Below, in pieces: positions 1,820 to 15,698 of a stretch of DNA of 64,000 bases. The notes beneath the pieces are model-generated. The model saw nothing but the letters and a program-made list of their open reading frames with translations. It ran no database searches and had not been told where the DNA came from. The stretch spans positions 1,664,001 to 1,728,000 of the forward strand of contig CP147779.1 in the NCBI GenBank assembly GCA_037308085.1, written 5' to 3'. Each line of letters starts with the position of its first letter. The first letter of the stretch is position 1. Origin of the DNA: Promethearchaeati archaeon SRVP18_Atabeyarchaeia-1. GTDB lineage: Archaea; Asgardarchaeota; Atabeyarchaeia; Atabeyarchaeales; Atabeyarchaeaceae. The position numbers and the translations under genes were made by a program.

Positions 1820-2656
1820 TCATTCTTGACTCCCTGTCGCCTTAACTATTCGCGGAAGATCCCTAAAGTCTATTCTTGCGAAGCCCCTTATCGCTTCTCC
1901 TCTGGGTCCTGTTGCGTTAAACAATCCGCTTCTAGCCCTTGACCAAGTCGCAAGCCATTCAAGGAGCTCTCTGGCGAATCGAAGTTTCAGTCTCTTCATA
2001 GACAGCCATTTCCTGTCATACCTTCTGGAATCAGAATCCTTGTCTCTGTTTTTTGAGTATTTTCCTATGACTTTTCCGAGATCCATTCCAGCCAGAACGA
2101 TTGTCCTTGCCTCCATTTCCTCTGCCAAGAAGACACCCCTATCTCCATCGGTGAAACCTCCAAAGTTGTGGATTGCGGGAGGGCTGGGCTCCGCTTGCGT
2201 TGTCCCAAATACCTCTCCTTTACGACCATCAATGATTCTTGGAACCCATTTTCTTAGCGCCTCAATGTTGTCTCCGTGCGCATGAATTACCACGGTCGCG
2301 CCCACCTTGCTGGCTTCTATTATATCCTCTACGCAACCGTCCAGGTCAGTGACCACTATGTGTGGTATGATTGATTCTTCCAGAAGTGCACTGGTTGTGC
2401 CATCTGCAGCCACAAGCTTGAAAGATCTCTCTAGGCCACTTGAGACCAGCTCAGCCAAGTTATTCTCAAGTGATGGACCTGCTCCAAGGATCAATATGTC
2501 TCTGCCTTTGACTATTCTTCTAAGTGCTGCAAGCGGCGCTGCAGCTCTCGATAATAAATCGCTTAGAACAAGTGAGGCTTCGCGATCCTTATCGACGCTG
2601 TACCCGAACGACGAAGTTATCTTCTCGTACCAAGGCATCCAACGGGCAAATTCCAT
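1820..2656 (-). CDS. mptE: 6-hydroxymethyl-7,8-dihydropterin pyrophosphokinase (DUF115 family)
   Basis: GAGPSL, AADG, VVTDLDG, HAHGDN, NFGGFTDGDR motifs. Confidence 0.92.
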   Translation of the reverse strand: MEFARWMPWYEKITSSFGYSVDKDREASLVLSDLLSRAAAPLAALRRIVKGRDILILGAGPSLENNLAELVSSGLERSFKLVAADGTTSALLEESIIPHIVVTDLDGCVEDIIEASKVGATVVIHAHGDNIEALRKWVPRIIDGRKGEVFGTTQAEPSPPAIHNFGGFTDGDRGVFLAEEMEARTIVLAGMDLGKVIGKYSKNRDKDSDSRRYDRKWLSMKRLKLRFARELLEWLATWSRARSGLFNATGPRGEAIRGFARIDFRDLPRIVKATGSQE

Positions 2657-2694
2657 TCTTCCTCAAATCACCCGTTCTAACGATCTTCTAGCCC

Positions 2695-3654
2695 TTACGG
2701 TGATATCTGGGAGCTTCCTGCCTTTACTTCGCTTCTCAGCACCCCGAGGGTCGCGCGTCTTTCCGCCACCATGTCGTGTTTGTGTATGCTCTCGGCGCTT
2801 CTCATCTTCATGGTGACATGAGTTGCGTCTGGTAAGTCTGCAAATGTTTCAAGAATCCCCTTTGCCATGTACCTTATTGAATCCTCGACGAACCTTGGAT
2901 TCTCCAGCGCTTTGATCACCATTTGAAGTTCATCTGGGCGTTTTAGGAGCTCGTATGTTGGTGCACTGGCAGACTCCTCGATCACTTTTATTATGTCAGT
3001 GAGGTCGACAATGTAGCCTTGCGGTGCATCCATCATTATGAGCCCTGCACATCGCTGCATGTGAGTTCCCGTCGGGGGATCACAAAGTAGCTTCTCTGTT
3101 TGTTCTCTGCCAAGCAGTGTTGACCCGTTTTCGCGGATCTTGTTGGCGAACAGGCTATCCATTGATTCTTTTACGCACGGGCAGGCCGTAATGCCGATCA
3201 CTTTGGCGCCAATAACCCTCTTCGTAACGACAGCGGAGTTGGTGATTCTTGAAGTTGCTTTCGCATAAACAGTGTATGGTTCGAAGGTCTCCATTTCGGT
3301 CACAGGGGTCTTTCGTTCAACAATAGCCTCAGCTCTAGCCCTGACCTCCGTCCTAGTTGCATCATCATGCTTCTTTAGGAGCCTTGTTGAGATATTTGCA
3401 CAAAGATCCTCAATTCGATCTTTATTCTTTACAAACTCGCTGAAGACTTCTGCAATGACTTCATAGCTCCTCGAGGCATGAATCCCTCTCCTCATAGTTG
3501 GGAGATCAACATACACCTCAAACTGCGGGAGTAAAATCACTCTCTTACCCTTGAAGAGCGTGAAACTCACAGGCATTCTAATACCAACGACTCCGACCTT
3601 CTCGAGGGGTATTGTAACCTGAGGCTTTTCACGATGAACATCGCGTGAACTCAA
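2695..3654 (-). CDS. mptA: GTP cyclohydrolase MptA/FolE2 family
   Basis: RGIHASR, GITACPC, THMQR, LLKRPDE, NPRFVED, ESIHKHD motifs. Confidence 0.92.
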   Translation of the reverse strand: MSSRDVHREKPQVTIPLEKVGVVGIRMPVSFTLFKGKRVILLPQFEVYVDLPTMRRGIHASRSYEVIAEVFSEFVKNKDRIEDLCANISTRLLKKHDDATRTEVRARAEAIVERKTPVTEMETFEPYTVYAKATSRITNSAVVTKRVIGAKVIGITACPCVKESMDSLFANKIRENGSTLLGREQTEKLLCDPPTGTHMQRCAGLIMMDAPQGYIVDLTDIIKVIEESASAPTYELLKRPDELQMVIKALENPRFVEDSIRYMAKGILETFADLPDATHVTMKMRSAESIHKHDMVAERRATLGVLRSEVKAGSSQISP

Positions 3655-4097
3655 ATCCTAAACACACCTACAGATGACAGAGATGTAGAAGCAAACAGAC
3701 TCGATTCCCTAATGAGCCAGATATGAATATAAATGCTTCAGCTACGCATCTGGGACACAGTCGCCTCTCATTTCAGTCCTGTTAACTCTTCAGTTCCATG
3801 TGGAGGCTTCATATCACTGTCAAGAGTCAATGAAATGGGGAGAACCTTCAGAAAACCCACTGTCGAGCATGATTCCTGGTACGCGGCTGGAGGCTTGACC
3901 CACGCCAACTTCGTTCTATCGTCCAACATAGCAACAATAAATAGAGAAGAGAAGCACTCTAGTACTGACTTCGCCTATGAGGCTAGCTCAGGCAATTTGC
4001 CAGTTCAGTCCCTGAATTGGGGCAACACAAAGATCGATTGCTGGCTACGCCGGCCACGAGGTTCGGTCGATTCATTAGCCAGTCGGGCATCTGAGAG

Positions 4098-4838
4098 ATG
4101 GTTCCTATGAGTCGCAGACACCCATCAAATAAGGCGATTCTAGAAAGATTGGGCGCAACCAACGACTTCGTCTTTGAGGTTATCGTATCCACTTGCGCCA
4201 TCGATGGAACGCCAAACGCCGCTCCGATGGGAATACGGTTCGTGGGCGCCGGAGTCGGAGGAGAGGAGACCAAAATCCTGGTAAAGCCTTTCAAGTCAAC
4301 CACTACTTACCGAAATCTCTCAGCCCAGAGAGAAGCCGTGGTCAATGTCAGTTCTAACCCTGCAGCGTTTTTTGCGACTGCATTCAAGGGCCAGGTAGAG
4401 CGGGAAAGTGAGGTGAAGATAGATTTTTCAGCAGCCAGTTCTGTGAAACCTCCAAGGGTGAAGGGTTGTGACGCGTATATCGAACTCATGGTGGAGGACG
4501 TAAAGGAGGGCAGTCTCCTCGAGGATGAAAGGTGCGAAGTCCTATGCCGAGTTAAATCAGCGCAGCTTCAGAATCCGGATGCAAGACTCTACTGCAGGGC
4601 TCCCTACATTCTGATCGAGGCCATTATACATGCAACGAGAGTCAATGCGCTCCGTTCCCAGGGATTAATGAAAGAAGCTGGCGAACTTACTGAATTAGTA
4701 CATCGCTACAGAAACCTTGTCCACAGAGTCGCTCCCAACTCAGAGTATGAGAATATAGCAGCAGAACTGGAGGCAATCATTCACACGAAAAAAGAGGAAA
4801 CGGGAGTTCGTATCAGAGGAAGCGAGGGAGATGAATGA
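4098..4838 (+). CDS. DUF447 family protein (H4MPT-cluster associated)
   Basis: EVIVST...PNAAPMGI, KPFKSTTTYRNL, IEAIIHATR; overlaps the start of the RFAP synthase gene. Confidence 0.82.
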   Translation: MVPMSRRHPSNKAILERLGATNDFVFEVIVSTCAIDGTPNAAPMGIRFVGAGVGGEETKILVKPFKSTTTYRNLSAQREAVVNVSSNPAAFFATAFKGQVERESEVKIDFSAASSVKPPRVKGCDAYIELMVEDVKEGSLLEDERCEVLCRVKSAQLQNPDARLYCRAPYILIEAIIHATRVNALRSQGLMKEAGELTELVHRYRNLVHRVAPNSEYENIAAELEAIIHTKKEETGVRIRGSEGDE

Positions 4839-5812
4839 AGAAGATCAGGGTCAGCGCTCCTGCGAGAATACACATGGGGATATTTAACCCATCCCGTGGC
4901 GTCAGGGGGCGTCTATACGGATCCGTGGGCGTTGGCACTGAGGAGCCGAGAACAGTCGTCGAAGTCGAACAAGCAAAAGACATATACGCGTCAACCCCGT
5001 TCGCCGACGAGATCAAGTTTGTCGCAATGAAAATAGTGAGACACTATAATCTTGAGGGCGCTAGGGTTAACGTACTCTCTGCTCCAAAGCGGCATTCCGG
5101 ACTCGGCTCCACAACCCAGCTATCACTATCTATAGCAACTGGGATAACTAGAGCCTATGGACTCGACGTGAAGCCTGTTGATCTAGCCATGATCCTCGGG
5201 CGAGGGAAACAATCAGCAGCGGGGACCTACGTGTTTCAGATGGGGGGGTTTGTGGTTGATGGTGGTTGGGGAGCCAAGACAAGTTTCCCTCCCCTGCTGA
5301 TTCGCTATACCTTTCCTGAAGATTGGAGGCTCTTGATAGTTGTCCCTGAAAGTAGGGGCCTCGACGAGAAGGATGAGTTGGAAGCTTTTGAGAAGCTGCC
5401 GGCCCCTGATGAGCAACTCATCCGTGAAGCTAGTTACAGGCTACTTCTTGGGATGGCGCCTGCGATTATGGAGAAAGACATCCAGGCGTTCGGAGAGAGT
5501 CTCACCAAGCTACAAGAAACAGTTGGCGCAATGTTTTCTCAGGCTCAGGGTGGAGTGTTCCAGCCTCACTCGACCCCCATGATTGAGAAACTCAAAGCCA
5601 TGGGCGCAGCAGGCGTCGGTCAAAGCTCATGGGGTCCAGCTGTCTACGCAATATTCGATGCTGAAACGGGGAAAAGCGTAGAGGCCTTATTGAGGAGAGA
5701 GGTCCTGTCCGGTGGCTCAACAAAGCAACTTGGGAGTAGCTTATATGGCGCTTCAAAGTGGGGTGAGGTTTACTTCACGCGAGCTGACAATAGAGGCGCC
5801 GTGGTGACCTGA
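4835..5812 (+). CDS. mptG: Beta-ribofuranosylaminobenzene 5'-phosphate (RFAP) synthase, GHMP family
   Basis: PARIHMG, HSGLGSTTQL, GGFVVDGG, GQSSWGP motifs. Confidence 0.9.
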   Translation: MKKIRVSAPARIHMGIFNPSRGVRGRLYGSVGVGTEEPRTVVEVEQAKDIYASTPFADEIKFVAMKIVRHYNLEGARVNVLSAPKRHSGLGSTTQLSLSIATGITRAYGLDVKPVDLAMILGRGKQSAAGTYVFQMGGFVVDGGWGAKTSFPPLLIRYTFPEDWRLLIVVPESRGLDEKDELEAFEKLPAPDEQLIREASYRLLLGMAPAIMEKDIQAFGESLTKLQETVGAMFSQAQGGVFQPHSTPMIEKLKAMGAAGVGQSSWGPAVYAIFDAETGKSVEALLRREVLSGGSTKQLGSSLYGASKWGEVYFTRADNRGAVVT

Positions 5813-5873: not shown

Positions 5874-7028
5874 TCACTTGGCCTTGAGTTTCCTCACTAC
5901 CTCCTCGACCTTGAACCCTGGAAGCGTAATGTAGTCAAGGACTGTTCCCCTGCTCTCTTTTATTTTCATTCTCTTCACTAGGGGTTCGTATTCTCCCCCC
6001 TGAACACCGTTGGCGATTATTGCGGCGCCTTGTGCCACATCCTTGGCCTTGCTAGAGTATCTTCTTGGTGCGGAGACCTTGAGATCAAGTTTCCGGCTTA
6101 GCTCTGATTCGACCCAGTCGAAGATGCTCTTTATTCTTGAGAGTCTGCCAGTTAGAATGACTTCCCTAGGTCTTTCTTCTAGTACTGTCGATCCCATCGC
6201 TACGGCCTTCACTATTCCCTCGAGCATAGCTGACCAAGCGGTGACGAACGTCTGTCCCCCTGATTCGATACCCTCAACGAACTCGGCTGGCTCGAGGAGC
6301 CTCGCACCGCCCTGGGAAGCCATTTGACTTGCACCCCCCTCAAAAAGCCTGAGCTTCGTGAATTCGCCAAGGAGGTACGCCAGTTCGCCATCCATCATGC
6401 TATGAGTCAGGTAGCCAGGACCTGGAAAGATGGTTCCACCTATCCCATCTACTATTTGACCCTTCTCCACGATTATCGCTGCATTATAACCGAATCCCAT
6501 CTCGACACAGATTAAGCTGGTGTCAGCGTAGTCGATCCCCAGTCTTCTGGCTTGATCCCATACTGCATAAGCTGCAACACAAGTCTTGTCAGCCGTCCCC
6601 ATGTCTATTTTGTTGATCTTCCTGTGATATGGAACGGTAGGCAACTGAACTACTCCTGGGAGAGAGTACGCATTCATCTTGGCTTCCTTCATCATCCACA
6701 GAAGTTTCCTAAGTCCAGTGAGCACTGCTATTTCAACGTCGCCGACTTTGTCCAGAGTTGTCAGGGCGACGTCACTGGCAGTGAACTTTGATATATGCTT
6801 GAACTCCAATCCATATCCAGAGGGACCCACAATGACCTTCGGCTTGGCGTCTTCGATGACCTTGAAAACGGCTTTTGGATCATCTGCCACGAGTTGACTA
6901 GGGAGGGACTCATCGAGAACTATATGCTCCATGTCGCCATCAATGCAGAGAAGGTCAAAGTTCTTCGTACCAGGATCGATACCTAAGGCTCGCAATTCAA
7001 ATGGACACCTCTTATCGCAACAGGACAA
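5874..7028 (-). CDS. DUF1464 family ASKHA-fold (butyrate-kinase-like) protein
   Basis: GIDPGTKNFD, GPSGYG, NKIDMGTADK, DGIGGT, DGELAY motifs; exact start uncertain. Confidence 0.82.
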   Translation of the reverse strand: MSCCDKRCPFELRALGIDPGTKNFDLLCIDGDMEHIVLDESLPSQLVADDPKAVFKVIEDAKPKVIVGPSGYGLEFKHISKFTASDVALTTLDKVGDVEIAVLTGLRKLLWMMKEAKMNAYSLPGVVQLPTVPYHRKINKIDMGTADKTCVAAYAVWDQARRLGIDYADTSLICVEMGFGYNAAIIVEKGQIVDGIGGTIFPGPGYLTHSMMDGELAYLLGEFTKLRLFEGGASQMASQGGARLLEPAEFVEGIESGGQTFVTAWSAMLEGIVKAVAMGSTVLEERPREVILTGRLSRIKSIFDWVESELSRKLDLKVSAPRRYSSKAKDVAQGAAIIANGVQGGEYEPLVKRMKIKESRGTVLDYITLPGFKVEEVVRKLKAK

Positions 7029-7077: not shown

Positions 7078-8433
7078 CTAGGTCTGGATTCTGTGGATTT
7101 CTACGTTGCCTACCTCATAGCCTTGCGGAGTCACCCTGATCTTACCAACTTCTATTCTGTCAATCATACTGATTTCCGTTGTCATCACTATCGAGGCTCG
7201 CCTAGAATGGAAATCCAGTCTCCTCAGAATCCCAAGGGAAACAGGCACCTTGCTCTTTCCGAATACCGCCACGACTATATTGCCCAATTCTCTGAGCGAG
7301 ATGACTCTCAGTTCCTTCTGACTAGGTCTCGGGGATCCCGATTCAGCTTCGGCAGCTTCTTGTTGCTGGCTTTCTTCCCCTATGACTTCGGTCTTTGCAT
7401 CAGCGAAGTCCGTGACCACTGCATTTATGGAGCGTTCCGCCTCTTCACAATACAGCACTCTACTTTTCACCGCATCCCCGACTTTCCTCACCACTTGAGA
7501 AGTCGCAGGCTTGCCTCGCGAAGCGAAGAGGGGTGAGAAATCGATCGCGCTGTAATGAGCAGTGACTTCGGTTGCGTGTGAGAAGTACTTCCGATAAGAT
7601 GTCTCTCTGAGGAACTTTCTTTCGTCTCTATTTCTTGGCACAGCGTAAGGTGAAACTGGTAGCCGGGTAATCTGGACTTTGCTGGTGACTTCGCCCAGTA
7701 TGTGCTCCACTTCTCCTTCCCTTTGCAGGGCAACAAGGTGGCTGACGCCTATTCTCGATATCATTTCGCGCACGAAACTGACTGCAGCCGATCCAGCTAT
7801 CCAGCCCGGCATGTTTACAAACAAGACTGCTTCCTTCGCATTCTCCTCAACGAACTCCATGAGCTGCTCAGTTCCCTGCAGTACCCTATTTACCAAGTAT
7901 GCTGGGGATGTAGCGCCTACAAAGTAGATCGAGTCAGGGCTGTACTCAAGAAGTTCAGAGATAGGCTCGTTTAGCGTTGCAACCGACATAGTTGTTGGAG
8001 GACCAACCTCTGCCTGCCCCATGTCTGCGTCCAAAACTGCGACCTTGGACTCCTCCTTAATCAACATGTTGCTTGAGTAGGTGATAAAAGTATTCTTGCC
8101 GGTATCCAGTCCACCAAGAATCATGATTCTATGCTTTTCCTGTCGTTTTTCAATGATCTCTCTTACGAAAGCAGTCCACTCTCGTGGTATTGTTGATTCT
8201 TCTATTTCATTCACTTTGCCGTTCTGGCCAACGACAATGTCAAGCTCCGAGTCTTCGAGTACCTCGATAATTCTCGTTCTCCCAGCCCTGACAACAAGGG
8301 CTTCTCCGGAAGCGAGTGGCTTTCCCAAGCTTGAAGCGCTGCCGGTGAAAACCCTTACGGTTGCCGGACCATGTACCAGAAGCTCACGACCCGATTCTGG
8401 TTTTAACCTCATTGGCTTATGTCTCCTTGCCAA
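7078..8433 (-). CDS. Clp1/Grc3/Nol9 family polynucleotide 5'-OH kinase
   Basis: P-loop GGLDTGKNT, DADMGQAEVGPP, NMPGWI and RxxxERKFLRE motifs. Confidence 0.85.
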   Translation of the reverse strand: MARRHKPMRLKPESGRELLVHGPATVRVFTGSASSLGKPLASGEALVVRAGRTRIIEVLEDSELDIVVGQNGKVNEIEESTIPREWTAFVREIIEKRQEKHRIMILGGLDTGKNTFITYSSNMLIKEESKVAVLDADMGQAEVGPPTTMSVATLNEPISELLEYSPDSIYFVGATSPAYLVNRVLQGTEQLMEFVEENAKEAVLFVNMPGWIAGSAAVSFVREMISRIGVSHLVALQREGEVEHILGEVTSKVQITRLPVSPYAVPRNRDERKFLRETSYRKYFSHATEVTAHYSAIDFSPLFASRGKPATSQVVRKVGDAVKSRVLYCEEAERSINAVVTDFADAKTEVIGEESQQQEAAEAESGSPRPSQKELRVISLRELGNIVVAVFGKSKVPVSLGILRRLDFHSRRASIVMTTEISMIDRIEVGKIRVTPQGYEVGNVEIHRIQT

Positions 8434-8484: not shown

Positions 8485-10716
8485 CTATTCATATTCACCT
8501 ATACTGATCTGTGATACTCTCTTTGCCGGATTCCCGTACAGAATCGGCTTCATCCAGTTATCATCTTCCATTCCCTTTGACTCTATGAGCTGCAATCTTG
8601 CCTCTTTGAGTGCTTCGCCTACTGGTCTCTTGTTCTTGATGAGTTCCTCATAAAAAGCCTTCGTTAAGGTAAGAGTTGATTCTGTCATCCCTTCCGTGAC
8701 GGCGCCGACGAAGCATTCGGGCCCAGCTAGTTTCACGCCATAAGCCAACGTGTGCAGAATTCGGTCTTGCTGCTTCCCGTCCCATCCGCGCTCCCACGGC
8801 GGCCAGCATACATAGGAAACAATAAGCTGTGGATAGCCATTCTTGAAGAGCTTCCTGAGTTCATTTCCTCTGACTTCTCCGTCGATGAATAGCCAAGAGC
8901 TGGCCGTAGGATCGCCCGAGCTTGACTCAGCCGATCCAACAAAGTGGACTATATCATATTTGCCTGAGGAAAGATGCTCTTCGAAAGCCTGCCTGTTGAC
9001 TTCTCCTTTAAGGGTCTCGACTTTCACGGTGACGTCCCCAAAGGACTTGCTATCAGTAAGGAACTGCTCTAGCTGGTCTTCGTAGCTTGAAGGGGATGAT
9101 AGCTTGCCTTCTACTTTGCTGTCGATAAGTAGTATTGTCACTGGCTCGCTGTCGCCGCGAACGCGTGGGACCACCTTGTCTCTTTCTTCATCAGCAATTG
9201 AGCCATGCTCCTCTATGATCCACCTTGAAATTGGTTTCTTAAGGCACAGAAACTTGTCGCCATCATGCAGTATCTCGAACGGGATCATCAGTTCATCCCG
9301 ATCCACTTCGAAGGTGAGGTATTCAGGATCATCTTCCTCTATGTTTGTTAGCATGCTTTTGCTGAGCAACGTGTTGAATATTGATGCGCCTACCTTCTTG
9401 ATTTCGTCAAGGAAGTTCTTGACATACCTCTTCCTGAGGTCCTCCGTTGTGGCAGTTCTTGTTTTGTTCTCCATGTTGCTGCGGAGTCGATCGACATCCT
9501 TGATCATAGTCTTCAGACCGTACTCATCAAGTGGGGTGAGCGTAGAGTAGGTTCCGCTAATGTGACCTGGAGCATAGATCATTTCGTACTGGTTCTTTTG
9601 CCGAGAGACACTCAGGTATCCCACACCGGCGCTGATAGCCTCTGTGGTACCGCCAACGAATAGCCTTGACTTGAAGAATTCCCTCGGGTTAGGGACTAAC
9701 GACTCAACTTGACGCTTCCCAGCTGACGTTATATGATCCCGCGCAACTATGTAGAACTGCTCGAGAGCTTGGTTAAGGTCGTCGACAGAAGTAACATCTT
9801 TCTGACCCAGAATTATCGGGGCAGAATCCTGAATCAGCTTAAACAAACTAAAGATTCTCTTCGGAGGAGTAGTTGAAGGCATTGCGAGAGCAACTATGTA
9901 GGAGACGCCAAACTGGTCGCGCTTTGCCGTGTGGTAACTGCAAAGGTAGAAATCTTCGGTCTTGACAGTAGCGAAGCTGGGGAGAGTGTCGCTGGACGGG
10001 TGCATGCCGGCTGTTGTATTAACCTGACTGGCGCTAAGGGAGAATACCTGCGGATAAGTTGATTCCAAGGTGGGTTCGAACCCTCCAGAATTGCCTATTA
10101 AAGCAACACCCAAGCGGGTCAACTCTGGCGGAGCTTGAGGTATAGCCTGAATTGTAAGTGTTCGTTGCACTAGGTCAACCAATAAGACCTGGAAAGCCTG
10201 TGATATGCCATCCCCATTGATGGCGATCGACTCGTATACTCTACTCCCCCTGACTCCTGGCAAGTCGCCAAACTCATTGACAGTAATCAGGTCTCCATCC
10301 GTGTCACGCTTGTTGAGCATGAAGATCTTTGGCAAATTCGAATACGTTTGCCCCATCACAGCCATCAATTCGTCTAGGCTAGCCACGTCTTCGCTCATCT
10401 TGCTTCTCTCTGATTCGGCCACGAATATGAGCCCGTCAGCCCCTTCCGTGAGGATTCTTCTCTCTCGCGCGCAACTCTCAGAGCCACCTACAGCGAAGAA
10501 GTCGTAGAGGACTTCTCCACCAGTTGACAGAGATGCATAATCAAAGTAAACGGTCTCGCCTCGATTATTCTCGACTGACGTGAAGCCTCCCTTGCTTAGC
10601 TCGGCCACGTTGTTGTAATACCACTTCACCATGGCAGTCTTGCCTGACCTGAAGGGTCCCCATACCACAATCTTGAAGTGCATGCGGCCATTGTCGTCAC
10701 GGTTCATTTGAGGCAT
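8485..10716 (-). CDS. MglA-like small GTPase + possible longin/uDENN-like domain + C-terminal CHAT (caspase-like) domain fusion
   Basis: N-term KIVVWGPFRSGKT, TVYFDY, GADGLIFVAES, NKRD; C-term LMIPFEILHDG, DIVHFVG, AFYEEL...VGEALKEAR, W..PILYGNP typical of CHAT. Confidence 0.8.
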   Translation of the reverse strand: MPQMNRDDNGRMHFKIVVWGPFRSGKTAMVKWYYNNVAELSKGGFTSVENNRGETVYFDYASLSTGGEVLYDFFAVGGSESCARERRILTEGADGLIFVAESERSKMSEDVASLDELMAVMGQTYSNLPKIFMLNKRDTDGDLITVNEFGDLPGVRGSRVYESIAINGDGISQAFQVLLVDLVQRTLTIQAIPQAPPELTRLGVALIGNSGGFEPTLESTYPQVFSLSASQVNTTAGMHPSSDTLPSFATVKTEDFYLCSYHTAKRDQFGVSYIVALAMPSTTPPKRIFSLFKLIQDSAPIILGQKDVTSVDDLNQALEQFYIVARDHITSAGKRQVESLVPNPREFFKSRLFVGGTTEAISAGVGYLSVSRQKNQYEMIYAPGHISGTYSTLTPLDEYGLKTMIKDVDRLRSNMENKTRTATTEDLRKRYVKNFLDEIKKVGASIFNTLLSKSMLTNIEEDDPEYLTFEVDRDELMIPFEILHDGDKFLCLKKPISRWIIEEHGSIADEERDKVVPRVRGDSEPVTILLIDSKVEGKLSSPSSYEDQLEQFLTDSKSFGDVTVKVETLKGEVNRQAFEEHLSSGKYDIVHFVGSAESSSGDPTASSWLFIDGEVRGNELRKLFKNGYPQLIVSYVCWPPWERGWDGKQQDRILHTLAYGVKLAGPECFVGAVTEGMTESTLTLTKAFYEELIKNKRPVGEALKEARLQLIESKGMEDDNWMKPILYGNPAKRVSQISIGEYE

Positions 10717-11268: not shown

Positions 11269-13248
11269 GTGTGTGACAGAAAGATGGCAGTCAGCGACTC
11301 AATAAAGAGTCTCCTGAGTACGGAGTCATTGGTTCGAAGGGCCTCGGCAAGAGTTCTCAGCGACATGGCTGAATCTGATCCGAGCAAATTCAAGGAAGAC
11401 GATCTGGCGGCAATCATCAAAGTCCTACGGGAAGAGGATGATTCCTTGACTCTTGAATTCCTGCTCAAAGTGATCGACTTCGCTGGTCTAAGGAATCTCA
11501 CCTATCTCATTAATGCCGGCCTTCTGAGAGTTCTCGTAGACGTCTACATGAGAAATATGGGTGGCATAGGGGTGCCAGTGGGTCGCAATGCCATGCGTCT
11601 TATCTCAACTCTCGCGTCGGCTGATATTGAGGGGGCTGAGAAACTCGATGTGATAGGTCTGGATCTAAGGGCAATAACTGGTTCGTCTGATCCCTATGTT
11701 CGCTGGTACGCCTCAATGGGGCTTCGGAAGCTTGATCCATCCTTGATACGGAAGGGATCCCCCGAGATCGTGGACTACTGCCTGGATGCATTGACTAAGG
11801 AGAGCGATGATAAAGTCAGGATTGCAGGCGCATTGACGCTGTCACTTGTGGCATCACTCGCGCCAGAGGCACTGGACGGGAACGATGCCATCAAGACTAT
11901 CATTAAGACCATGTTGAAGGACCCGAACTCTGAGGTTCAGGAAATGGCAGCGATGACGCTGCAGTTTCTGGCGAGAAGAGACCCCTCTCGGCTACGAGAT
12001 ACCAAGATCGGTGAAGCTCTCTGCGAGACCGTAATCAACAAGTTGGAATCCCTCAAGAAAAACGACAACCGGGCGGATCGCGAAGTCCTTGTATCTGCAG
12101 CGTCAACCATATCTATACTCGCAATGAGAGATCTTTCGACTCTGACCGAGAGTAAGGGTATTGAGGAGATCAACATAGCTGAAATTGTCACCAGTGCCCT
12201 GGCGGAGAGCGCCGAGGAAACCGATGTAAGGCCCATACTCTTGTCCATCTTGTTGGAGCTCTCGAACAAGGCTGCTCGTTACGTCAACAACAAGAGGATT
12301 GTTAGTGTTCTGGCTGATCTGCTCGACAAGGGGGATGAAGCAGACACTTCGCGCAGATCAGCGATCTCAATTCTTGACATGGTGGCGTCGATCTACCCAA
12401 CTCTGTTCGCCGACTCACTCGCGCTAGAGAGGATAGTTTCGGCCTCACTTAAGAGCGCGAAACTTGAGACATCAGCAAGACCACAGCACGGACCATCACC
12501 CATAGTTGTTCTAGACACTCTCGTTAGCTCAGAAAAAGGATACAGGGTGGCAGTCGCTGGCCTACAGAGACTCCACAAGGAGAAACCTTACCTAGTCTCA
12601 GAGATATGCGAAGCAAGAAATTGGAAGGGTATAATGAGCCAAATCAAGGGAGAACCGGTAGCCGAGACGAAAATAGAGAAGCCTCCGACAGTTGCAAGCA
12701 CAACGCCCGTGCAGAGAGCGGTCGGACAGGTTGCCACTGAAAGGAAAGAGCCTGAACCTACAGAAGTTTCGAAGGAAGAAAAGAGGAAACCTGCACCATC
12801 GACGAGGCTAAACGATGAACAGAAGGCGATGCTTCAGGAGATCTTCAACACGTACGCCGAAATACCATTAACGGAACTCGCCCAGAAGCTGAATGTAGAC
12901 GAGAACATCATCAGAGAGGTGCTAGGCAAACTCATTGGATCAGGCAAACTGCCCTACAAGATCCAAGATGACAGGCTCTACCTTAAGAAAGTGCCTACAG
13001 TTCGGGCGACCCGGAGGGAGAGGTCCACGCTTTGCATCTGGTGTGGAGCCGAGTTGGGTCCGATGGATGAAAGATGCCCGAATTGCAATAAAACTCCTCC
13101 GAAGTGCCTCATCTGCAACGCCGAGCTTACAACCGAGGATGAGCTTGAGAAATGCCCGTTCTGTGGAACTCTGTTCCACCGCGAGCACTATAGGAAATGG
13201 GTGGAGAAGAAGAAGCACTGTCCCAAGTGCAGTGTTGCATGGTCGTAG
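11269..13248 (+). CDS. HEAT/ARM-repeat protein with PCI-like winged helix, zinc ribbon and C-terminal RING-variant finger (putative E3 ligase)
   Basis: Repeats such as DPYVRWYASMGL, DDKVRIAGALTL, DPNSEVQEMAAMTL; IPLTELAQKLNV helix; CIWC..CPNC; CLIC-x12-CPFC-x4-HREH-x3-W-x6-CPKC. Confidence 0.8.
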   Translation: MCDRKMAVSDSIKSLLSTESLVRRASARVLSDMAESDPSKFKEDDLAAIIKVLREEDDSLTLEFLLKVIDFAGLRNLTYLINAGLLRVLVDVYMRNMGGIGVPVGRNAMRLISTLASADIEGAEKLDVIGLDLRAITGSSDPYVRWYASMGLRKLDPSLIRKGSPEIVDYCLDALTKESDDKVRIAGALTLSLVASLAPEALDGNDAIKTIIKTMLKDPNSEVQEMAAMTLQFLARRDPSRLRDTKIGEALCETVINKLESLKKNDNRADREVLVSAASTISILAMRDLSTLTESKGIEEINIAEIVTSALAESAEETDVRPILLSILLELSNKAARYVNNKRIVSVLADLLDKGDEADTSRRSAISILDMVASIYPTLFADSLALERIVSASLKSAKLETSARPQHGPSPIVVLDTLVSSEKGYRVAVAGLQRLHKEKPYLVSEICEARNWKGIMSQIKGEPVAETKIEKPPTVASTTPVQRAVGQVATERKEPEPTEVSKEEKRKPAPSTRLNDEQKAMLQEIFNTYAEIPLTELAQKLNVDENIIREVLGKLIGSGKLPYKIQDDRLYLKKVPTVRATRRERSTLCIWCGAELGPMDERCPNCNKTPPKCLICNAELTTEDELEKCPFCGTLFHREHYRKWVEKKKHCPKCSVAWS

Positions 13249-13833: not shown

Positions 13834-14241
13834 CTACTTATTCTGCGCCATTATCTCAGATACCATATCTTTTGTTCTATTCAGCTCCAAGAAGGTCATT
13901 CCAAGGCTTGCCCCTTTTCTTGTGATAACCGACAAGATCATTTCTTCTGTGGCCTTGGACAGGACAATGTCGCCTATTAGTCCGCTCACAACGACTCTCT
14001 TCAACTCGCCCAACTCGAGCTGGTTCACAACATTGGCGCCGATGTTAAGAAGTGCAGCGGACATCGCGCCAGCAATCGCGTCATCGCTGAGACCTGGAGT
14101 CCAAGCGGAAACAATCAGGCCATCACGTCTCACAAGGGTAGCTCCATCTATCCCTTGAGTCGAGGTACCAAGGTGTTTGAGTATGCTTCCGAGTCTTCCT
14201 TTCAGGCTCGAATCATTTTCAACCCCAGGAGCTTTCACCAC
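13834..14241 (-). CDS. Roadblock/LC7 (MglB-like) protein
   Basis: LVRRDGLIVSA, AMSAALLNIG, LELGELKRVVV, ASLGM. Confidence 0.9.
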   Translation of the reverse strand: MVKAPGVENDSSLKGRLGSILKHLGTSTQGIDGATLVRRDGLIVSAWTPGLSDDAIAGAMSAALLNIGANVVNQLELGELKRVVVSGLIGDIVLSKATEEMILSVITRKGASLGMTFLELNRTKDMVSEIMAQNK

Positions 14242-14275
14242 ACTCTGCCCCCATTTAAGACTTAAACGTGCTAAA

Positions 14276-14869
14276 TCAGGATCCGATCAAGCCACGTTCT
14301 TTCATAACCTTGAGTAGCGCTAGCAGCGCCTCTCTAATCCCTCGCCCCGTCAAGGCCGAGCCCTCGAAGAATTGAACCGATTCAATCTTCATTAGGCTCT
14401 TCATGGCGCCGGCTTTCATGGCACTTTCTAGATCCTGCTTGTTGGCAACTACAACCATTGGGATATCTTTACCGAGGTAGGACTTTACTTCCTCGTAGAT
14501 GGCTATCGCATGCCCTATCTGTCCGGGAGCTGTGCTATCCACAATGAAGATGACGCCCTGCGCTCCTTTGCTTGTGGCTTCTCTGATTGGTGACATATGA
14601 ACTTGGCCAGGGCTTCCCATCAACATCACGCGGAAAATGTCTGATCCAATATTGTCGTTCTTAATCTCATCATCACTACACAATTTGTCGTTTCCATTCC
14701 ACCATACATGCCCTAGGTCAAACACGATCGTGGTTGTAGTACCATCTGCGAGAGTTCTCTCTACACTCTGCGCGTTCTTGTCCAAGAAGTGGACGAACGT
14801 CGTTTTTCCCGCGTGAAAGGGACCGGCAACGAAAATCTTGTAAGTTGCCGCCTTCTTTTCACAACTCAA
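14276..14869 (-). CDS. MglA/Arf-like small GTPase
   Basis: GPFHAGKTT (G1), TTTIVFDLG (G2), GSPGQ (G3), NKQD (G4), SAL (G5). Confidence 0.92.
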   Translation of the reverse strand: MSCEKKAATYKIFVAGPFHAGKTTFVHFLDKNAQSVERTLADGTTTTIVFDLGHVWWNGNDKLCSDDEIKNDNIGSDIFRVMLMGSPGQVHMSPIREATSKGAQGVIFIVDSTAPGQIGHAIAIYEEVKSYLGKDIPMVVVANKQDLESAMKAGAMKSLMKIESVQFFEGSALTGRGIREALLALLKVMKERGLIGS

Positions 14870-15258
14870 TGGAAATCATCTCCATCAAGAACTTCCGTTA
14901 TTTTGATGGACGCCTTCTGGAGTACCAGGTGGATGAGCCCCAGACCGACTTTGGAGCGCGCTGTGCCAATTATCAGTTGGTGCTTTCCAGCGCTCCTGAC
15001 GACAGTGATCCCGTCGTCTGCCTGTATGGTGACCTGGGATAGCTTCCCTTGCTTCAACTCCTCAACTGTCCTTTCGCCCATAGCAAGGATGGCTGCGGCC
15101 ATAGCTGAGAGAATACTCTCCTTCTCGGGTAGGCAAATTGCCGAGCAAATCGGCAACCCGTCTTCGCTTACGATGCAAGTGGCATCAAGGCTGCCTGAGT
15201 CAACAGTGTCTTGAAGAACTTGGGTTAACTTCATCTGCTTGCTAAGGGTTTCAGCCAT
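14866..15258 (-). CDS. Roadblock/LC7 (MglB-like) protein
   Basis: IVSEDGLPIC, SAMAAAILAMGER, ELKQGKL, LGLIHL; likely start ATG 15258; overlaps the GTPase start. Confidence 0.9.
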   Translation of the reverse strand: MAETLSKQMKLTQVLQDTVDSGSLDATCIVSEDGLPICSAICLPEKESILSAMAAAILAMGERTVEELKQGKLSQVTIQADDGITVVRSAGKHQLIIGTARSKVGLGLIHLVLQKASIKITEVLDGDDFH

Positions 15259-15698
15259 ATACCGGCCCCCTGATTGCAAAGGAACTTGAAACAAATACTA
15301 CTGTGAACGCATCAATTCCAATATTGAGAGGAGTTCAGGCTAATTAAAAGCCTATCTTTACTTGTGCCAAGATTCCTCTGCTTGCGTGCGATCCTCGCAA
15401 GATCCACTGCACGGTTGCTAAATTCGCAAGAGGCAATTCAAATGTCTGGGTCTCAAAGATTAGCGTAGAAAATGCATGGTAGCTACTGCGCAAACGAGCG
15501 ATCCCAATGTGCCAGGATCGGCTTGGACCAATTTACAGAAGTTGTGACGACTTTCCAAACCTGCTAAAAAGATCGCCATCCAAGATGTCAACAGTTAGGG
15601 CTTAAGATTCATCGAGAGAATCGTACTTTCGCGAACCGTTGGAGAAGAGACCAGTAAACGTTGACCCAGATTTCTCTTTGAGACAACAATGTTACGAG

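Follow-up and report, generated by a model that had tools for sequence, protein, structure and literature searches.

What does a protein do when it joins a small GTPase to a caspase-like module and appears to have lost the catalytic residues of both? This question is raised by a gene on the minus strand of a 64,000-nucleotide stretch (the window) of the genome of Promethearchaeati archaeon SRVP18_Atabeyarchaeia-1 (contig CP147779.1, positions 1,664,001 to 1,728,000). An earlier note on this DNA had read the gene as a fusion of an MglA-like GTPase, a longin-like segment and a CHAT domain, and all the motifs that it quoted were located in the frame (GPFRSGKT, E54-T55, AVGGS, NKRD, HFVGSA and VSYVC). 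We are highly confident of the following domain anatomy: an MglA-type GTPase, a longin domain, and a two-lobed CHAT module resembling those of separase and Csx29. With confidence evenly poised for and against, we propose that the product is a signalling adaptor without catalytic activity, made as one chain, in which a GTP-binding but hydrolysis-poor switch would gate a protein-binding CHAT module. The features of the gene are as follows.

8485..10716, minus strand: whole open reading frame (ORF), 743 codons and a stop (ORF reading and orthologue alignment)
10150..10707, minus strand: MglA-type small GTPase domain, residues about 4-189 (family profile against the PDB, structural superposition)
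10636..10659, minus strand: G1/P-loop GPFRSGKT, residues 20-27, kept (G20, P21, G25 and K26 invariant in 16 sequences)
10552..10557, minus strand: switch I E54-T55, E54 being the site of MglA Arg53 and T55 the G2 Thr (alignment to MglA)
10480..10494, minus strand: G3/switch II AVGGS, residues 75-79, in place of MglA TVPGQ (invariant, 16/16)
10303..10314, minus strand: G4 NKRD, residues 135-138, guanine specificity, kept (N135, K136 and D138 invariant)
9712..10119, minus strand: longin domain, residues about 200-335 (DSSP of two AlphaFold2 (AF2) models, structural comparison)
9394..9690, minus strand: N-terminal lobe of the CHAT module, residues about 343-441, comprising a helix, a three-stranded sheet and long helices (alignments to separase and Csx29)
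8527..9393, minus strand: caspase-like CHAT core, residues 442-730, predicted to be catalytically dead (Pfam CHAT, hhalign, structural alignment)
8929..8946, minus strand: HFVGSA motif (sequence)
8932..8934, minus strand: S595, at the catalytic His site (H585 of Sb TPR-CHAT; alignments to active CHATs)
8806..8808, minus strand: C637 of VSYVC, at the catalytic Cys site (C627 of Sb TPR-CHAT; alignments to active CHATs)

The frame from 8485 to 10716 contains no stop and translates to 743 amino acids. Translation probably begins at Met4 (window 10707), giving a product of 740 residues, because MNRD... is the start of every orthologue and the protein is recorded in the database (P0007) with 740 amino acids; residues are numbered here on the 743-residue frame throughout. 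A TTTAAAA box lies about 50 nucleotides upstream of the first ATG, and this box and the gap of 51 nucleotides to the next gene are compatible with a promoter of the gene's own. The ORFs that the plus strand shows within the gene only shadow the real frame. About 18 relatives of the fusion protein, full or partial, come from metagenomes with identities of 46-75%, and the ratio of nonsynonymous to synonymous substitution rates (dN/dS) is 0.10; thus, this is not a chance ORF. A search of NCBIfam returned no family for the fusion protein. The family alignment used below has 16 members, over which all invariance counts were made, and the AF2 models (one of the full-length protein and one of the middle domain alone) were built from 16-18 sequences.

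Domain anatomy and catalytic sites

The assignment of the N-terminal domain to the MglA type is borne out by both sequence and structure. A profile of the 16 members matched MglA in the PDB with an E-value of 8e-23, the next protein that is not MglA being 8oun_A ("GTP-binding protein") at 9e-08, and Pfam gave only a sub-threshold Arf match of 20.8 bits. When compared with VIA-align, the AF2 model superposes on MglA with Z scores of 20-21.6 and a root-mean-square deviation (rmsd) of 2.1-2.9 Å over about 175 residues, while Arf proteins reach only Z 16-17; Foldseek template modelling (TM) scores for the domain are 0.75-0.81. The best matches in both sequence and structure are MglA, which in Myxococcus and Thermus works with a dimer of the roadblock partner MglB as its activating and exchange factor (GAP/GEF), and the solo MglA-like GTPases of Asgard archaea.

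The catalytic residues of MglA are missing across the family. In a HMMER alignment with M. xanthus MglA, E54 falls on Arg53, T55 on Thr54, and A75-V-G-G-S79 on T78-V-P-G-Q82. Arg53 of MglA is an intrinsic Arg finger (PMC10933270). The Glu that the earlier note saw in its place extends to Glu or Gln in the family as a whole (E in nine and Q in seven of the 16 sequences), with Arg in none. The replacement of TVPGQ by AVGGS was likewise confirmed and proved invariant, so the Thr/Asp site and the catalytic Gln (Gln82 of MglA) are gone and the Gly78 that contacts the gamma-phosphate is retained. The G1 and NKRD motifs are kept, as had been claimed, and the residues that bind nucleotide or sense the gamma-phosphate (G20, G25, K26, T55, G78, N135, K136 and D138) are invariant. 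As far as the alignment tells, the P-loop, Thr55, Gly78 and NKxD together preserve all of the residues for GTP and Mg binding and for the switch I/II change. Because the Arg finger and the catalytic Gln are lost while the binding residues are kept, the domain is expected to bind guanine nucleotide; its hydrolysis would be slow at best, except where a partner provides the residues that it lacks.

A maximum-likelihood tree unites the fused GTPase domains in one clade (support 100/100) on a long stem of 1.17 changes per site. This clade is sister (94/94) to a clade of solo GTPases without the Gln, and both lie inside the MglA-like GTPases named in Hermod-, Odin-, Hod- and Thorarchaeota metagenome-assembled genomes (MAGs). 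These enclosing Asgard proteins keep GRT and, mostly, TVAGQ. By the tree, the fused domain descends from solo Asgard MglA-like GTPases, and the catalytic losses are derived, since the clade nests among proteins with GRT and mostly TVAGQ. Solo MglA-like GTPases of about 190 amino acids are common in the phylum, occurring in 372 of the 400 genomes covered by a profile scan.

Two solo paralogues of the fused domain are encoded in the same genome. One (C1:735116-735655) has the canonical GRT and TVAGQ motifs, is 44% identical to the fused domain, which by sequence makes it the closest canonical paralogue, and lies between two roadblock genes. The resulting roadblock - MglA-like GTPase - roadblock operon occupies C1:734606-736150 on the minus strand. 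Of its two roadblock proteins, one has a further match to MAPKK1_Int (LAMTOR3-like). The other paralogue (C1:563426-563971, minus strand) is 41% identical, keeps GRT, has TVAGA, in which the Gln is missing, and is without a roadblock gene beside it. It belongs to the sister clade of the fused domain and may likewise be a switch with impaired hydrolysis.

The middle segment, which the earlier note had taken to be longin-like, has the longin order of secondary structure, a longin being a five-stranded sheet that bears one helix on one face and two on the other. In the full-length model DSSP assigns strands at 203-210 and 216-221, a helix at 229-237, strands at 247-252, 256-262 and 271-280, and helices at 285-304 and 311-332. 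This strand-strand-helix-strand-strand-strand-helix-helix topology is the same in the domain-only model, in which the predicted local distance difference test (pLDDT) score is 83-90 across the first 90 residues. When the segment was compared with 48,161 chains using VIA-align, longin proteins alone stood at the top, with Z 8.7-9.8 over 122-135 aligned residues. The matches include Lst4 (Z 9.8), Nprl of GATOR1 (9.6), FLCN and FNIP2 (9.4 and 8.9, respectively), C9orf72-SMCR8 (9.3) and a Lokiarchaeal Roadblock-Longin protein (8.8), followed by the SEA complex (8.4) and VAMP7 (7.9). A shape search of the ESM Atlas with the middle domain returned SMCR8, NPRL2, Longin/Synaptobrevin and bacterial GAP1-N proteins. 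On these models, the longin assignment for residues 200-335 is sound.

The top structural matches are thus longins of GTPase-activating protein (GAP) complexes (Lst4/FNIP, FLCN, Nprl2/3 of GATOR1 and C9orf72-SMCR8). Compared with them, the segment is only 7-11% identical, is not followed by a DENN lobe and has no invariant Arg finger. In fact, every Arg of the longin domain varies: 14 of the 16 members have R266, and the consensus R294 is Leu in this protein. Sequence searches with the segment returned little. No Pfam family matched at E<=0.1, phmmer with residues 191-430 recovered only the fusion family among the fetched homologues, no shorter protein matched residues 195-345 at E<=0.01, and the middle-domain model had no Foldseek hit at E<=1e-3. 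Feature scores in the ESM Atlas were 0.76-0.82, which makes those hits leads only. One protein (P0167) considered as a relative over residues 14-315 was set aside, as only its GTPase part aligns. A homodimer prediction for the longin domain (two copies of residues 195-340) scored 0.00 in a run without controls and is evidence neither for nor against dimerisation.

The C-terminal half is a CHAT module. Pfam CHAT (PF12770) matches residues 442-728 over 286 of 289 profile positions, with 50 bits against a cut-off of 24, and hhalign of the family to 30 active CHATs gave a probability of 99.95% with the catalytic dyad in the same register. In structural comparisons, model residues 343-736 align with residues 1676-2120 of human separase (Z 18.0, 309 residues, rmsd 4.1 Å), with Sb Csx29/TPR-CHAT 322/388-715 (Z 17.3-17.5) and with SAVED-CHAT (Z 16.4). 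Because these alignments span residues 343-736, residues 344-441 belong to the module as well. The separase and Csx29 alignments begin at model residues 342-345, and for several CHAT homologues the alignment starts at query residues 362-380.

The catalytic dyad of Sb TPR-CHAT is H585/C627, and both C627A and C627S are inactive (PMC9729208). A profile of 30 active homologues places the His of GHA on 585 and the Cys of NAC on 627 (native numbering) of Sb TPR-CHAT; since the active-homologue columns map to H585 and C627, S595 and C637 occupy the dyad sites. We then compared the 16 family members with their 129 nearest CHAT homologues (about 28% identical). The dyad His (YDIVH[YF]AGHA) is present in 123 of 124 active homologues, while the fusion family has Pro in ten members, Ser in five, Arg in one and His in none. 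The dyad Cys (LVFSNACQSG), present in 123 of 125 active homologues, is Ser in nine members, Cys in four and Trp in three. The Asn of FSNAC (122/124) is replaced by Tyr, His or Phe.

The earlier claim that the C-terminus is a caspase-like CHAT domain without its His therefore holds for the whole family, with the His absent from 16/16. The companion claim, that the Cys is kept, stands for this protein and not for its relatives, among which Cys is the minority state; C637 is present here yet, on the alignment, is not under selection as a nucleophile. By sequence, the protease site is more degenerate than the earlier note held, and the module is predicted to be unable to cleave. Another His, H591, lies four residues before the lost one and is invariant in the family. 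It is not a replacement, because it is equally conserved in active CHATs beside their true dyad His and, in the model, sits four residues further into the strand whose end is near position 595. None of the other His and Cys residues of the module is invariant except C491, which is part of an FLC motif that is also the consensus of active relatives. The residues around the former protease site that are invariant and specific to the family are G601, D602, P603, W608, P639, R643, W645, D646 and Q649.

All of the domains are under purifying selection. For the one pair of orthologues that is unsaturated (L001/L007, dS 0.70), dN/dS is 0.03 for the GTPase, which is the most constrained part, 0.14 for the longin, 0.12 for the N-terminal lobe of the CHAT module and 0.10 for its core. 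Given these values of 0.03-0.14 and the invariant family-specific residues at the former protease site, the domains appear to be working rather than decaying.

A possible GTP-gated binding protein

We suggest that the MglA-type domain would bind GTP and switch with poor hydrolysis, and that the fused longin domain would stand in for the separate roadblock (MglB-like) partners of the canonical paralogue, serving as a platform in cis that could support the switch region, dimerisation or both. The dead CHAT module would be the output, binding proteins or peptides as the nucleotide state makes it more or less accessible. This logic is modelled on that of TPR-CHAT, SAVED-CHAT and separase, in which a sensor gates the CHAT pocket, with binding in place of cleavage. 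The "nucleotide-sensing pseudo-caspase scaffold" of the earlier note may, on the sequence, reasonably be inferred as the function.

Each part of this scheme has counterparts in known systems. Compared with MglA/MglB, the fusion has Glu or Gln for Arg53 and AVGGS for TVPGQ, and carries a longin and a CHAT module in the same chain instead of working with free roadblock dimers. Fusions of GTPases to longin or roadblock domains have been described in Asgard archaea by Tran et al. 2024 (PMC10933270), and the protein resembles these and the Rag/Gtr proteins, whose C-terminal roadblock domain mediates dimerisation, in having a small GTPase followed by a longin/roadblock-type domain in one chain. It differs from Rag/Gtr and Arf in that its GTPase is of the MglA type by sequence. 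Foldseek lists RagA/RagC over 333-362 columns with a poor superposition (TM 0.36-0.39, rmsd 12 Å), and some relatives of the fusion have faint Gtr1_RagA Pfam matches. TPR-CHAT/Csx29 (Craspase), SAVED-CHAT and separase similarly place a pseudo-protease-like N-terminal lobe and a caspase-like core behind a sensor or regulatory region. In these systems the sensor consists of TPR repeats with gRAMP, a SAVED domain or a helical solenoid, whereas in the fusion it would be the GTPase-longin unit, and the fusion family lacks the conserved dyad residues. Among the published descriptions searched, we found no fusion of a GTPase and a longin or roadblock domain with CHAT, and no account of this three-domain protein.

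The pairing of an MglA-type GTPase with CHAT is nonetheless recurrent, because two other proteins, in branches of the GTPase tree separate from the fusion clade, also join an MglA-type GTPase to a CHAT module; by sequence, these are independent fusions. One, of 1173 amino acids from a Helarchaeota MAG (P0146), shares the N-terminal MglA-type GTPase and the C-terminal CHAT, and differs in its middle TPR repeats and intact dyad (HFAGHA, VLSACESG). The GTPase of this protein has LNFSD in place of NKxD. The other, of 790 amino acids (P0140), likewise combines an N-terminal MglA with a C-terminal CHAT-like domain without the dyad, and is unlike the fusion in having a canonical MglA (DRT, TVPGQ, NKRD) and a Pro-rich linker.

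Several points weigh against a non-catalytic, GTP-gated adaptor. The confidence of the AF2 models is moderate, with a mean pLDDT of 72-73. Some GTPases that lack the Gln do hydrolyse GTP through a residue supplied by a GAP, as Rap does with RapGAP. The Ala at the G3 Asp/Thr position might weaken Mg binding, which would call nucleotide binding itself into question. The link from nucleotide state to the CHAT module is something that we infer. Finally, the loci compared have no neighbouring gene that is kept throughout the family.

The first of the alternatives starts from the same GAP chemistry: the GTPase could be a normal cycling switch whose hydrolysis is completed by an Arg or Asn of the longin in cis, in the manner of the longin GAPs FLCN, Nprl2 and SMCR8, or by a separate GAP, leaving only the CHAT module as a pseudo-enzyme. 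We regard this as rather doubtful. The best structural matches of the longin, Lst4, Nprl, FLCN/FNIP2 and SMCR8, do come from GAP complexes, and the GTPase has invariant switch I and switch II sequences and the lowest dN/dS of the protein, as would suit a cycling enzyme. The longin, on the other hand, offers no invariant Arg (R266 and R294, above), and the joint loss of the Arg, the Gln and the G3 Thr resembles that in known hydrolysis-dead GTPases. That the CHAT module is instead an active protease with a non-canonical site, for example with Ser or Cys at 637 and another base, we consider highly improbable. Thirteen of the 16 members do have Ser or Cys at position 637, and H591 is invariant close to the lost His; but three members have Trp at 637, H591 has the same conservation beside the true dyad His of active CHATs and a deeper position in the strand, Asn635 of the FSNAC motif has given way to Tyr, His or Phe, and the single change C627S kills TPR-CHAT (PMC9729208).

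A role in defence is also conceivable. Conflict systems centred on GTPases, with caspase-superfamily effectors and inactive-enzyme decoys, were described by Kaur et al. 2020 (PMC7159879), and the protein could be a component or decoy of such an NTP-gated defence system, after the bacterial GTPase-GAP1-effector systems. Besides this precedent, the ESM Atlas search gave weak shape matches to GAP1-N1 and GAP1-N2 (TM 0.41-0.48), and a deltaproteobacterial protein is among the nearest active CHAT relatives. Yet PADLOC matches neither the protein nor its neighbours, which are housekeeping genes (Clp1-type P-loop, DUF1464 and pterin genes); each of the family's three genomes has a single copy of the gene in conserved synteny; and purifying selection acts strongly and evenly, showing no trace of diversification. 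We therefore judge a defence role to be improbable. The protein was considered as well as a regulator of an active paralogous protease. This was rejected: a scan of the 2.81-Mb genome with CHAT and C14 models found no second CHAT gene and no Peptidase_C14 caspase.

A bolder version of the adaptor proposal, which we think quite unlikely, would make the protein a single-chain archaeal counterpart of the eukaryotic units in which a small GTPase sits on longins (Rag with FLCN- or GATOR1-type longins), with the separase-like pseudo-protease holding or releasing a client according to the GTP state. If true, such a GTP-gated "substrate trap" would be of a type that has not been described from any domain of life. 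Forerunners of eukaryotic GTPase, longin and roadblock signalling are being sought in Asgard archaea, and here one Asgard lineage appears to have rebuilt an MglA-type switch as a three-domain protein in which both enzyme domains are conserved, putatively non-catalytic modules. Should binding by the dead CHAT module prove to be gated by the GTP state, the adaptor would offer a clear example from nature of a design for protease activation put to use in binding, and the few prokaryotic pseudo-GTPases on record would gain a member. In practical terms the value is modest, as the family is small and has no tie yet to a eukaryotic pathway.

Distribution and gene neighbourhood

The full-length fusion is rare. 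It occurs in three of the 400 genomes of the phylum covered by the profile scan, namely the genome of the window and two others of its family, one of them fragmented. The best relative in the genome collection has 57% identity and comes from "Candidatus Atabeyarchaeum deiterrae Atabeyarchaeia-2", and one metagenomic relative is labelled Njordarchaeum guaymaensis. An exhaustive search of 1.84 billion representatives recovered no further full-length family. The genes and the operon compared with those of the relatives are as follows.

7078-8433, minus strand: Clp1-type P-loop protein, 131 bits, directly downstream
5874-7028, minus strand: DUF1464 protein, 324 bits, downstream on the same strand
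13834-15294, minus strand: roadblock - small GTPase - roadblock operon (P0002, P0003, P0004), 3.1 kb away

The downstream order of the Clp1-type P-loop and DUF1464 genes is kept in relatives with 57-72% identity and not in the clade with 46-50% identity, in which the gene lies between DUF72 and BtrH_N/PadR genes. At the locus of the 72% identical relative (L003), the genes called upstream include a HEAT-RING gene and the roadblock operon. Clp1-type, DUF1464, HEAT-RING and roadblock genes thus accompany only the closer relatives (57-72% identity), and none of them was retained as a conserved operon partner.

The roadblock operon was found where the earlier note had placed it, about 3 kb away. 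As a partner of the fusion it fares poorly: it is absent beside the 46-50% clade, its GTPase (P0003) shares only 25-27% identity with the fused domain and lies outside the fused/Asgard MglA-like group in the tree, and the 44% identical paralogue has a roadblock pair of its own. The operon is local synteny. Its GTPase has TTT and SPGQ motifs and, in the alignment, a large insertion between switch I and G3.

Divergent from the gene, on the plus strand at window 11269-13248, is a gene for a 659-amino-acid protein with HEAT repeats and a weak PCI/winged-helix match, which ends in a RING-type zinc finger preceded by a zinc ribbon. This HEAT-RING gene also lies upstream of the fusion gene at the locus of one close relative (L003/L004). 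On the other side, window positions 1820-5812 hold a pterin/folate-type cluster that encodes an MptE-like kinase, a type IB GTP cyclohydrolase (folE2/GCHY-1), a DUF447 flavin-reductase-like protein and a GHMP kinase, and this cluster is syntenic in relatives.

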